The notes beneath the pieces are model-generated. The model was not told where the DNA came from. It did no database searches and worked only from the letters and a program-made list of their open reading frames with translations. The translations under genes and the position numbers were made by a program. Positions 8,570 through 10,336 of a DNA stretch of 24,000 bases are shown in pieces. The stretch's first letter is position 1, and each line of letters opens with the position of its first letter. The stretch is from an uncultured Draconibacterium sp. (GTDB lineage: Bacteria; Bacteroidota; Bacteroidia; Bacteroidales; FEN-979): positions 48,485 to 72,484 of the forward strand of contig CAZVNF010000001.1 of NCBI GenBank assembly GCA_964628215.1. Reading direction: 5' to 3'.

Positions 8570-8866
8570 TCAGCAGCAATTGCTCCCTGAACCGCAATCG
8601 CAGGTTGGCTCAGTACCGCGCAGGATTCCATTGATGATCCCTGCCGCACATCCTACCCCCGACTTTACTGTAATCGCACCGGCTTCACAGTTTTTGGCGC
8701 ACGCTCCGCACTCCATGCAAAGGTCCTTGTTGCGTATCGCCGCTTTTCTGCCGGTAATTTCAAATACGGCATGCGGACAAACGATCGTGCACATGCTGCA
8801 ACCATTGCACTTTGCTGCGTCCAGTTCCAGGGTCACTACTCCGGGGAGATAGGCAAATCCGTTCAT
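8570..8866 (-). CDS. hgcB: HgcB, the 2x[4Fe-4S] ferredoxin of the mercury methylation pair
   Basis: 98 aa with two CX2CX2CX3C motifs (CNGCSMCTIVCP and CMECGACAKNCE). The CMECGA motif is present, there is an additional conserved Cys (VGCAAG), and the C-terminal tail CDCGSGSNCC ends in vicinal Cys-Cys. The ATG overlaps the hgcA stop as ATGA (8863-8866). Confidence 0.9.
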   Translation of the reverse strand: MNGFAYLPGVVTLELDAAKCNGCSMCTIVCPHAVFEITGRKAAIRNKDLCMECGACAKNCEAGAITVKSGVGCAAGIINGILRGTEPTCDCGSGSNCC

Positions 8867-9906
8867 AAGGCAAAAAATCTGGTGAATATCCAGCCGGCCA
8901 GCCCGAGAGCTGCCATGGTTATTTGTGCAGGCAGGGCAATCTTCATCTCATGCTGTACCCCCGACAAGGAAGTAAAAGTGGAGGACCCGGTGAAATTCAT
9001 GGCCATGAAGGAGGAGAGGCTTCCGATCATCAGAAACCATGAAATTTTTTCAACAAAAGAGGGGCCGAGGGTACCGGCAAACAAAAGCAGAATGGCCCCC
9101 GTCCATCCGGCGGCAAGCCCTTTAAGGGAGAAGCGGCGGAAGGGAAACCAGGGAAGCAGGGCAGGAACCAGTGCACATCCCGCCAGGTAACCTGCATAGA
9201 GGTTTACCGTGGTTTTCCACCCCGTATTAAGGGCTGAATCGAGGGAGAATCCCCCCGGATAAAAACCCGACAACAGGAAAAAAACGGCAGGAACCGCCAG
9301 CATGTAATATTTTCCGTAAAACAGATCGACCGGAATAAGTTTGAGTCTTTCAACCAAAGGGAAGGTTACACGCCTCATGGCCCCGGTGGCTTTAAAACCG
9401 TTCTCCGCAAAGGCTTTGATATCCTCCGCTTTTACCGGACCGTAAATGACAGAAAAACCGGTCATCTTCTTCACCTCATGCGCTGCCACACCGGTTGCAC
9501 CAAGTTGGGGCAGAATGATTTTCCGGTGATCGACAATCTTTTCGAGATGGTCGATCCGGATACGCCTCACCACTTCCTTGGTACTGAAGGTTCCTTTTCC
9601 AGCGGCACACCAAACATTGATTCCCCGGGTATCGAGCACCATTATCCAGCCATTCATGCCCGATAAGGCCCGCCGCAGGTGGTCGAAGCTGAGTTTATAA
9701 TTCCCCGTAACAAAAACCCGTGAACCGGGATCAGGATCGCCTACGGCATAAATACCGGGTGTTACCCTGTATTTCATTCGCCCGATGGACCAGCGCACCT
9801 TTATGGTACTCCAAACATCCTCAAAACTCCAGGCGGTTGATACCCTGGGCAGCTCCCCTGCAGGTGTTTGAATAGTTCCGGTTTGGTATACGGGCGAAAT
9901 AGCCAT
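8863..9906 (-). CDS. hgcA: HgcA, the corrinoid-binding membrane protein of the mercury methylation pair
   Basis: The cap-helix signature GINVWCAAGKG is encoded at about 9595-9618 and matches N(V/I)WCA(A/G)GK. The upstream conserved block is YRVTPGIYAVGDPDPGSRVFVTGNYKLSFDHLRRALSGMNGWIMVLDTRG. The C-terminal half has 4-5 predicted TM helices, including LPWFPFRRFSLKG. I chose the start at ATG 9906 (MAISPVYQ...), 1 nt after the arsC stop; the track ORF extends to 9990 inside arsC. Confidence 0.92.
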   Translation of the reverse strand: MAISPVYQTGTIQTPAGELPRVSTAWSFEDVWSTIKVRWSIGRMKYRVTPGIYAVGDPDPGSRVFVTGNYKLSFDHLRRALSGMNGWIMVLDTRGINVWCAAGKGTFSTKEVVRRIRIDHLEKIVDHRKIILPQLGATGVAAHEVKKMTGFSVIYGPVKAEDIKAFAENGFKATGAMRRVTFPLVERLKLIPVDLFYGKYYMLAVPAVFFLLSGFYPGGFSLDSALNTGWKTTVNLYAGYLAGCALVPALLPWFPFRRFSLKGLAAGWTGAILLLFAGTLGPSFVEKISWFLMIGSLSSFMAMNFTGSSTFTSLSGVQHEMKIALPAQITMAALGLAGWIFTRFFAL

Positions 9907-9907
9907 G

Positions 9908-10336
9908 CTAATGTGATTGGTTCTGTATCTTCTCCCGGTAAAATTCCAGAAACCCCGAATAGATTTCATCGCGTACCCTTCGGTATACACCCATCACCTC
10001 ATCCTGTGTTCCCACTGCATCTGCAGGATCGTCAAACCCGATGTGCAGGCGGTTTTTCACGATACCGGTAAATGCCGGACACACCTCCATGGCGCCCCCG
10101 CATACCGTAATCACATAATCAAACGGATCGGCCACGAAAATATCCACATTTTTGGGTTTGTTCAGGGAAATATCAATTCCAACCTCTTTCATAACGGTCA
10201 CCGCATTGGGATTGGAGTGCGGCGCGGGATGCGTTCCCGCTGAAAAAACCTCAAGCCCGGAATCGAAAGATTTAAGAAAACCTTCCGCCATCTGGCTCCG
10301 GCATGAGTTGCCGGTGCATAAAACTAATATTTTCAT
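9908..10336 (-). CDS. arsC: Arsenate reductase, thioredoxin-coupled LMW-PTPase type
   Basis: 142 aa. MKILVLCTGNSCRSQMAEG is the CX5R P-loop. TVCGGAMEVCP provides the second and third catalytic Cys with the same C-x6-C spacing as the Bacillus/Staphylococcus ArsC TLCSDADNNCP. The FDDPA motif is present. Confidence 0.85.
   Translation of the reverse strand: MKILVLCTGNSCRSQMAEGFLKSFDSGLEVFSAGTHPAPHSNPNAVTVMKEVGIDISLNKPKNVDIFVADPFDYVITVCGGAMEVCPAFTGIVKNRLHIGFDDPADAVGTQDEVMGVYRRVRDEIYSGFLEFYREKIQNQSH

Follow-up and report, generated by a model that had tools for sequence, protein, structure and literature searches.

The DNA considered here (the window) is a stretch of 24,000 nucleotides (nt) from contig CAZVNF010000001.1 of an uncultured Draconibacterium sp. 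On its minus strand an arsC-like gene and the mercury-methylation genes hgcA and hgcB follow one another head to tail (Table 1). Between the arsC stop codon (TAG, 9910-9908) and the hgcA ATG (9906) there is one nucleotide, the C at 9907, and the hgcA/hgcB junction is an ATGA overlap, with hgcB starting at 8866 and hgcA ending at 8863. These coordinates and both junctions, the 1-nt arsC-hgcA gap and the overlap, had been claimed in an earlier note on this DNA and were read from the sequence as claimed. The stop codons of hgcB and of a convergent FabK/nitronate monooxygenase (NMO) gene are 16 nt apart. The order OEP fragment-arsC-hgcA-hgcB-convergent FabK/NMO was found, whole or in part, in different samples (several Joint Genome Institute samples and two Logan runs), on contigs of which at least 10 were assembled independently and whose proteins are identical or 99% identical. 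Because of this recurrence misassembly was ruled out.

Table 1 Features of the arsC-hgcA-hgcB locus and of the region directly upstream
Feature	Position	Strand	Description
hgcB	8570..8866	-	98 amino acids (aa); 2x[4Fe-4S] ferredoxin, Cys73, C-terminal CC; NF040864
hgcA	8863..9906	-	347 aa; corrinoid protein, cap helix and probable C-terminal membrane domain; NF040863
arsC-like gene	9908..10336	-	142 aa; LMWP-fold three-Cys arsenate-reductase homolog; LMWPc, 1JL3 alignment
Leader, -7 box to arsC ATG	10337..10409	-	73 nt
Bacteroidetes-type -7 box TATATTTG (TAnnTTTG)	10410..10417	-	Inside degenerate operator site 2, GACCTATATTTGCGATG
Operator-like palindrome, site 1	10433..10450	-	TAACGTA-TAAT-TACGTTA; one central base off the relatives' TAACGTATTATTACGTTA
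Promoter/operator module of the Bacteroidales ars-hgc operon	10408..10451	-	Site 1, spacer, site 2 with -7 box; nhmmer

HgcA scored 427.4 bits against the NCBIfam model NF040863 (curated cut-off 275; E=3.3e-128; residues 20-344) and HgcB 117.2 bits against NF040864 (curated cut-off 99). Window HgcA, in which the CdhD-like corrinoid-binding domain PF03599 is present, stayed below the cut-offs of the HgcAB-like fusion model (202.1 bits, cut-off 285) and of the ACDS gamma model (65.7 bits, cut-off 306), and hgcB is a separate open reading frame (ORF). The cap-helix and cysteine motifs noticed earlier are present. The cap helix NVWCAAGK occupies HgcA residues 97-104 (nt 9618-9595) with Cys100 as the Co-ligating residue; in an alignment of 43 diverse HgcA sequences N97, V98, W99, C100 and K104 are invariant and the other cap-helix columns nearly so. 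A Kyte-Doolittle scan of HgcA residues 196-347 revealed four clear hydrophobic segments and one weaker one, which may form a multi-pass membrane domain of about 5 TM helices. The HgcB translation shows both CX2CX2CX3C motifs (C20/23/26/30 and C50/53/56/60, the latter containing CMECGAC), the extra cysteine C73 and the C-terminal pair C97-C98. The best matches of both HgcA and ArsC are from metagenome-assembled genomes (MAGs) of Bacteroidales/Bacteroidota, and in a neighbour-joining (NJ) tree window HgcA falls inside the Bacteroidota HgcA clade, the model scores separating it from fused and CFeSP paralogs. The genes are confirmed, at the level of orthology, as a true, unfused hgcA/hgcB pair of a Bacteroidota host, as the earlier note had held. 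A GTG at 9990, which would lengthen HgcA to 375 aa, was discarded as the start, since homologs and the profile align from the ATG at 9906.

Fusions were noted among distant HgcA representatives. P0243 (512 aa), recorded by three sources, is a single predicted protein in which an N-terminal ArsC-like LMWP domain is fused to HgcA. P0134 (621 aa) is a MIP/aquaglyceroporin-HgcA fusion, P0138 (724 aa) an ArsP_1 permease with a Cys-rich linker fused to HgcA, and P0143 a GNAT acetyltransferase-HgcA fusion. Each is a singleton or belongs to a two-member cluster, and they may be either genuine Rosetta-stone fusions or artefacts of read-through in sequencing or gene calling.

The product of the arsC-like gene passed the Pfam LMWPc cut-off (66.5 bits against 23.2) and aligned to B. 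subtilis ArsC 1JL3 with E=7e-31. The CTGNSCRS P-loop (CX5R) is identical, C79 and C86 align to Cys82 and Cys89 of 1JL3, and GFDDPA, with Asp105, is identical as well. On TIGR02691 (arsC_pI258_fam) the protein scored 121.8 bits, under the equivalog cut-off of 174.3; it is therefore called an ArsC-like thioredoxin-type reductase on its motifs and not as an equivalog. Of the earlier designation as a Trx-type arsC, the three-Cys LMWP-fold homology with its catalytic motifs stood and assignment at equivalog level did not. The score also fell under the curated cut-off of NF010053. Such scores, and the retention of the gene beside hgcAB though arsR and acr3 are gone, would fit a protein in the service of HgcAB, an LMWP-fold thiol reductase or phosphatase that might, for instance, keep Cys ligands in the right redox state. 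This reading is far-fetched, however, as the residues of the thioredoxin-coupled mechanism (CX5R loop, Cys82/Cys89 disulfide cascade, Asp105) are all conserved, the relatives' copies lie in canonical ars contexts (arsR, acr3, arsP, arsD-arsA), and PGAP gives close relatives the name 'arsenate reductase ArsC'. Among ArsC homologs with context the two most similar (84-86% identity) belong to arsR-arsC-cysrich-dsbD-hgcA-hgcB loci; one with 77% identity (P0352) occurs on its own in a genome of 5.3 Mb. In public gene calls (L161, L163, L165, P0272) ArsC begins at Met16 and has 127 aa. A protein of this length would be without the catalytic CX5R loop, and the alignment with relatives begins at residue 1. 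The 142-aa start is therefore correct, and the 127-aa call is a systematic start-site error in public annotations.

Upstream of arsC lies a promoter/operator module that is shared with related loci. An nhmmer profile of 13 related sequences that did not include the window matched positions 10451-10408 (E=7.4e-8, 32.8 bits) and had no other strong match in the 24 kb window; in the relatives' loci every strong match was on the hgcA strand, upstream of the operon. The relatives' module consists of TAACGTATTATTACGTTA, a spacer of about 10 nt and TAACGTATATTTGCGTCA, situated 12-20 nt or more upstream of the first gene; TAACGTATTATTACGTTA itself lies some 55 nt before the operon's first gene. In the window, site 2 starts ten nt downstream of site 1, within the 123-nt region upstream of arsC, and the -7 box aligns with AACGTATATTTGCGTCA of the relatives. 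Both sites are ACGTA-type palindromes and site 2 overlaps the TAnnTTTG -7 box, as expected of a repressor operator. In most loci the first gene behind the module is arsR; L012 and L081 have hgcA in this place, and some loci a gene for a 247-aa Cys-rich protein followed by ABC-transporter genes. Where no arsR is adjacent, site 2 is degenerate and site 1 intact in three of four loci (the window, L012 and L022); L081 keeps both sites.

On the minus strand between 8570 and 10460 the box at 10417-10410 is the only TAnnTTTG, and none occurs inside the trio on the coding strand. A scan for intrinsic terminators gave 4 terminator-like sites against 2.9 expected, hence no excess. The single-unit architecture that had been proposed thus fits the spacing of the genes, the one TAnnTTTG upstream of arsC and the lack of terminator excess. 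It is very unlikely that the trio is merely adjacent and that hgcAB has an internal promoter of its own. Loci L012 and L081 do carry the module directly before hgcA, and hgcAB can therefore be a promoter-proximal pair, but neither the module nor a coding-strand TAnnTTTG was found between 10336 and 8570, the arsC-hgcA gap is 1 nt, and sigma-70-like matches occur at chance level in a scan that is uninformative for Bacteroidota. No riboswitch (e.g. cobalamin) or other known RNA was matched in Rfam between 8300 and 12000 at E up to 1, nor was an Rfam family found in the 73-nt leader. As marks of Bacteroidota the earlier note had pointed to TAnnTTTG promoters and domains of the type IX secretion system (T9SS). 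The box upstream of arsC is well placed, but overall TAnnTTTG shows no enrichment (15 occurrences where 18.7 are expected) and the T9SS Por_Secre_tail match, at 26.2 bits, falls just under the cut-off of 27.

The leader also contains a mini-ORF of 24 codons (MRQTVTRILQASTFSGIYCSNQPL; 10333-10407, minus strand), which starts 3 nt past the -7 box and whose TGA overlaps the arsC ATG as ATGA; it has no similarity to arsR. Tandem repeats of 7-8 nt were observed in the spacer before arsC or hgcA in L002, L013, L020, L029, L081, L082, L084 and L087, and the window has none. L084, for example, has about 15 copies of ATCATCAA/ATTATCAC and L082 about 14 of GTGGACAA; the repeat is TCTTCAAA in L087 and L029 and GTAAATC in L020.

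Related hgcAB neighbourhoods were surveyed at 160 loci, 80 of them metagenomic (HgcA 59-75% identical to that of the window) and 80 from species-representative genomes of many phyla (76-47% identity). ORFs were called, neighbours clustered and cluster representatives annotated; close relatives were metagenomic loci with an HgcA identity of at least 66%. Recurrent neighbours of hgcAB are ArsR (HTH_5), ArsC (LMWPc), Acr3 (SBF family, about 350 aa), ArsP_1, Thioredoxin_3 and rhodanese, together with a DsbD_2 membrane protein and a Cys-rich membrane protein of roughly 94 aa without Pfam match. ArsC is encoded directly upstream of hgcA in 12/21 close relatives, in 10/33 Bacteroidota-labelled species genomes and in 2/42 genomes of other phyla. 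For acr3 after hgcB the corresponding counts are 12/17, 12/26 and 0/39, and for the combination of arsR, arsC and acr3 they are 8/14, 4/25 and 0/29. Any ars gene is found at hgcAB in 10 of 14 close relatives, and in 23/25 Bacteroidota loci compared to 7/29 in other phyla (Fisher p=4e-7, ignoring kinship). Within Bacteroidota this ars linkage is kept across HgcA identities from 79% down to 47%.

The commonest gene order in the clade of the window is arsR-arsC-hgcA-hgcB-acr3, and arsC-hgcA gaps range from -4 to +88 nt, with several of 10 nt or less. The nearest neighbours in the NJ tree have the orders arsC-hgcA-acr3 (on a partial contig), arsR-arsC-hgcA-hgcB-acr3, or arsR-arsC-cysrich-dsbD-hgcA-hgcB(-acr3). 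In the closest species genome (L081, 76% identity) hgcA and hgcB come first, followed by thioredoxin, dsbD-like, rhodanese, arsD and arsA genes (P/O-hgcA-hgcB-trx-...-arsD-arsA). In a Paludibacter sp. MAG (L139) the order is ArsP-ArsC-HgcA-HgcB-ArsR-Acr3. Because of these counts and tree neighbours the arsC-hgcA-hgcB order, which the earlier note had called unusual, is typical of the clade; arsC upstream of hgcA recurs in relatives and is not unique to this contig. A large subclade (L033-L075 and many others; HgcA 60-65% identical) has a different arrangement, with the Cys-rich 94-aa gene, a DsbD_2 gene of 233 aa, hgcA and hgcB, often arsR upstream, and arsC and acr3 mostly absent; many of its contigs come from one sample group. 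In genomes of Syntrophales/Smithella, Spirochaetota, Clostridia, KSB1 and Victivallaceae (L117, L121, L124, L128, L136, L142, L146, L147, L158) the place directly before hgcA is taken by a gene for a MarR-family regulator of roughly 160 aa with Cys-rich ends, and not by arsR. This protein is a possible alternative regulator of hgcAB.

The window stands out by having neither arsR nor acr3 at the locus, which makes it a reduced form. No HTH_5 ORF is present in or near 8570-10460, the ORF upstream of the trio being the OEP fragment, and no acr3 or arsB arsenite efflux gene was found next to the trio in the window; in relatives acr3 (SBF family) takes the position that the FabK/NMO gene occupies here. 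In a local alignment of the 73-nt leader with all relatives' arsR genes the best score was 23, within the 21-27 of the shuffle null, and no arsR remnant was detectable in it. The earlier statement that no arsR is present is true in cis. It is misleading in that the arsC promoter is the clade's arsR-type module, so that a repressor encoded elsewhere is plausible. Upstream of the operon, the TolC-like OEP gene (10460-11419, minus strand) encodes 319 aa, of which only the C-terminal OEP repeat was matched, compared to 415 aa for the OEP gene downstream of hgcB in the related locus L166. It is followed by about 550 nt without sizeable ORF (11420-11976) and by a DUF4143 fragment of 154 aa (11977-12441, plus strand) without the usual N-terminal ATPase part. 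The region 10460-12441 looks decayed or rearranged, and this decay may be a trace of the event that removed arsR.

The locus is probably a reduced copy of the Bacteroidales ars-hgc operon. In this explanation the Bacteroidetes-type promoter (-7 box 10417-10410) within a two-palindrome, putative ArsR-type operator module would drive a single arsC-hgcA-hgcB transcript with its start shortly after 10410, and its three cistrons would be translationally coupled through the 1-nt gap and the ATGA overlap. Judged from its conserved catalytic residues, ArsC would reduce arsenate to arsenite in a thioredoxin-dependent manner. HgcA, a Cys-ligated corrinoid protein, and the ferredoxin HgcB would methylate Hg(II), an activity predicted from their orthology. 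In close relatives the same promoter precedes arsR-arsC-hgcA-hgcB-acr3, which would place hgcAB there in an arsenic- or soft-metalloid-responsive regulon. At the present locus arsR and acr3 appear to have been lost or relocated, and the ArsR-family repressor in control would be encoded elsewhere in the genome or be lost itself; either control by a trans-encoded repressor or partial derepression may therefore be expected. In Pseudodesulfovibrio mercurii ND132, hgcAB is under the control of an ArsR-like repressor that responds to arsenic (bioRxiv 10.1101/2022.10.17.512643).

Several points weigh against this explanation. The synteny counts and the Fisher test ignore kinship, that is, shared ancestry, and the ORF caller used for the counts missed genes occasionally. 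Co-transcription and translational coupling are predicted from spacing, and binding of ArsR to the palindromes is likewise putative. The absence of arsR and acr3 is that seen within the 24 kb of the window. ArsC stayed under the TIGR02691 cut-off, and as of a 2020 preprint no member of the Bacteroidales had been experimentally confirmed as a mercury methylator.

Why hgcAB and ars genes are linked is a separate question. Co-regulation or co-transfer within soft-metalloid resistance islands is the most likely reason. In its strict form this would mean that hgcAB is cargo recruited into horizontally mobile ars islands, joined to them by common induction through thiophilic metal(loid)s, perhaps Hg(II) among them, and by joint transfer, with no biochemical interplay between ArsC and HgcAB. 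This strict form is a serious possibility that falls a little short of being probable; it overlaps with the explanation as a reduced operon and differs only on the reason for the link. Within ars clusters hgcAB is found in widely varying places (behind arsC, behind dsbD-like genes, at the start of the operon, or ahead of arsD-arsA), a close ArsC homolog also occurs alone (P0352), and other phyla have different neighbours such as the MarR-family regulator. In addition, the distribution of hgcAB departs from species trees, suggesting horizontal gene transfer (bioRxiv 10.1101/2022.10.17.512643). However, the linkage persists at HgcA identities from 79% to 47% within Bacteroidota, and in different subclades arsC and hgcA repeatedly overlap or are no more than 10 nt apart, which together suggests selection for joint expression.

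A functional reason for the link would be that HgcAB acts in arsenic detoxification itself, handling the As(III) made by ArsC before export by Acr3, with mercury methylation as a side reaction; the route might be corrinoid-dependent methylation or another transformation. In the commonest architecture hgcAB indeed lies between arsC and acr3 with conserved tight junctions, in L081 it lies alongside arsD-arsA, and HgcA occurs in rare single-ORF fusions with LMWP/ArsC-like (P0243), MIP (P0134) and ArsP (P0138) partners. These fusions are singletons, though, and possibly read-throughs of sequencing or gene calling, and the window is without acr3. HgcA is thought to give a methyl carbanion to an electrophile, and ArsM methylates As(III) with a methyl cation equivalent. 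This mismatch of carbanion and methyl-cation chemistry would speak against the idea as well. The hgcAB deletion strain of P. mercurii ND132 showed raised sensitivity to As(V) and not to As(III) (bioRxiv 10.1101/2022.10.17.512643), which would favour a role in arsenic detoxification, but ND132 cultures were without detectable mono- or dimethylarsenicals and the summary of the ND132 paper states no significant loss of arsenic resistance. Taken with the evidence on both sides, a direct role of HgcAB in arsenic detoxification is considered unlikely. The more general proposition that Bacteroidota HgcAB is a built-in, ArsR-controlled part of arsenic/soft-metalloid detoxification operons with an arsenic-linked native function is equally doubtful. 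If it were true, HgcAB would take As(III) or an arsenic-thiol species as its substrate, at a step after ArsC; methylation of mercury by Bacteroidota would be a by-product that depends on arsenic exposure, and the double palindrome would be the regulatory switch.

Further gene sets were observed in the window. Converging on hgcB, a beta-oxidation-like set on the plus strand (4094-8553) encodes an enoyl-CoA hydratase, a 3-hydroxyacyl-CoA dehydrogenase, a thiolase-like protein and the FabK/NMO-family protein. A run of three plus-strand genes (16176-21034) encodes a carotenoid-synthesis-like membrane protein (PF04240), a MetA phenol-degradation-family outer-membrane protein and a 565-aa linalool dehydratase/isomerase-family protein (PF18566, 208 bits), and several ORFs without Pfam match follow. 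Such a terpenoid-type cluster is unexpected in an anaerobic Bacteroidales context.

The arsenic link has already been published, with arsC, acr3 and arsR flanking hgcAB (PMC7438021, bioRxiv 10.1101/2022.10.17.512643, PMC11984097), and the locus therefore adds no new principle. Many hgcAB regions are immediately flanked by acr3 and thioredoxin-/glutaredoxin-type arsC, and arsR and arsM occur near hgcAB (McDaniel 2020 mSystems, PMC7438021, Fig. 6). ArsR-linked hgcAB was described in Bacteroidetes including Paludibacter jiangxiensis, and hgcAB was found co-localised with arsC, arsB and arsM (Gionfriddo 2022/2023, bioRxiv 10.1101/2022.10.17.512643). With strain NM7, P. jiangxiensis is an hgcAB-carrying species in culture. 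The same co-occurrence of hgcAB and arsenic genes was reported in later work (Peterson 2025, PMC11984097, Fig. 4c; PMC10349881), and Bacteroidales hgcA clades are known from metagenomes (2020 preprint). In the literature searched, which is incomplete, no report was found of a near-universal linkage in Bacteroidota, of the commonest gene order or of the conserved promoter module with its double palindrome. What hgcAB natively does and how it is regulated are open questions of mercury biogeochemistry. According to the survey hgcAB is, in one whole phylum, almost always part of an ars operon with a recognisable promoter/operator, and natural variants like the window keep arsC-hgcAB without the cis repressor and exporter. 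The operator sequence and these natural 'deletion' variants are handles for studying arsenic control of methylmercury output by abundant fermentative Bacteroidales.

Compared with known systems, window ArsC shares with B. subtilis ArsC (1JL3) and S. aureus pI258 ArsC (1LJL) the fold family, the CX5R P-loop, the Cys10/Cys82/Cys89 cascade and Asp105, but unlike the thioredoxin-coupled LMWP arsenate reductases it scores under the TIGR02691 equivalog cut-off. With fused HgcAB-like and CFeSP/CdhD-type proteins window HgcA has the PF03599 domain in common; it differs in failing both of their models, in passing the HgcA model and in having HgcB as a separate ORF. Unlike a canonical ars operon, which combines arsR, arsC and arsenite efflux, the locus is without cis arsR and without cis acr3/arsB. 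An operon of B. vulgatus ATCC 8482, reportedly described by Li, Mandal and Rosen in 2016, is said to unite arsR, thioredoxin-like, DsbD-like, arsD, arsA, acr3 and arsC genes. This ars operon of gut Bacteroides is not known to contain hgcAB. The hgcAB loci of the window's relatives are flanked by the same accessory genes. In the arsR-hgcA-hgcB locus of ND132 (Goni-Urriza 2020; Gionfriddo 2022/2023) hgcAB is under an ArsR-family promoter, as is predicted for the window, and is likewise arsenic-linked, with hgcA and hgcB as separate adjacent genes, but that locus has arsR and no arsC or acr3, whereas the window has arsC and no arsR, and the host of the former belongs to the Desulfobacterota, that of the latter to the Bacteroidota. 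The published MAG neighbourhoods (PMC7438021, PMC11984097, PMC10349881) agree with the window in having arsenic genes, including thioredoxin-type arsC, immediately beside hgcAB. They are selected examples, whereas the present survey gives ars genes at 23 of 25 Bacteroidota loci, a commonest gene order and a conserved promoter/operator; the window itself has a reduced form of the operon.

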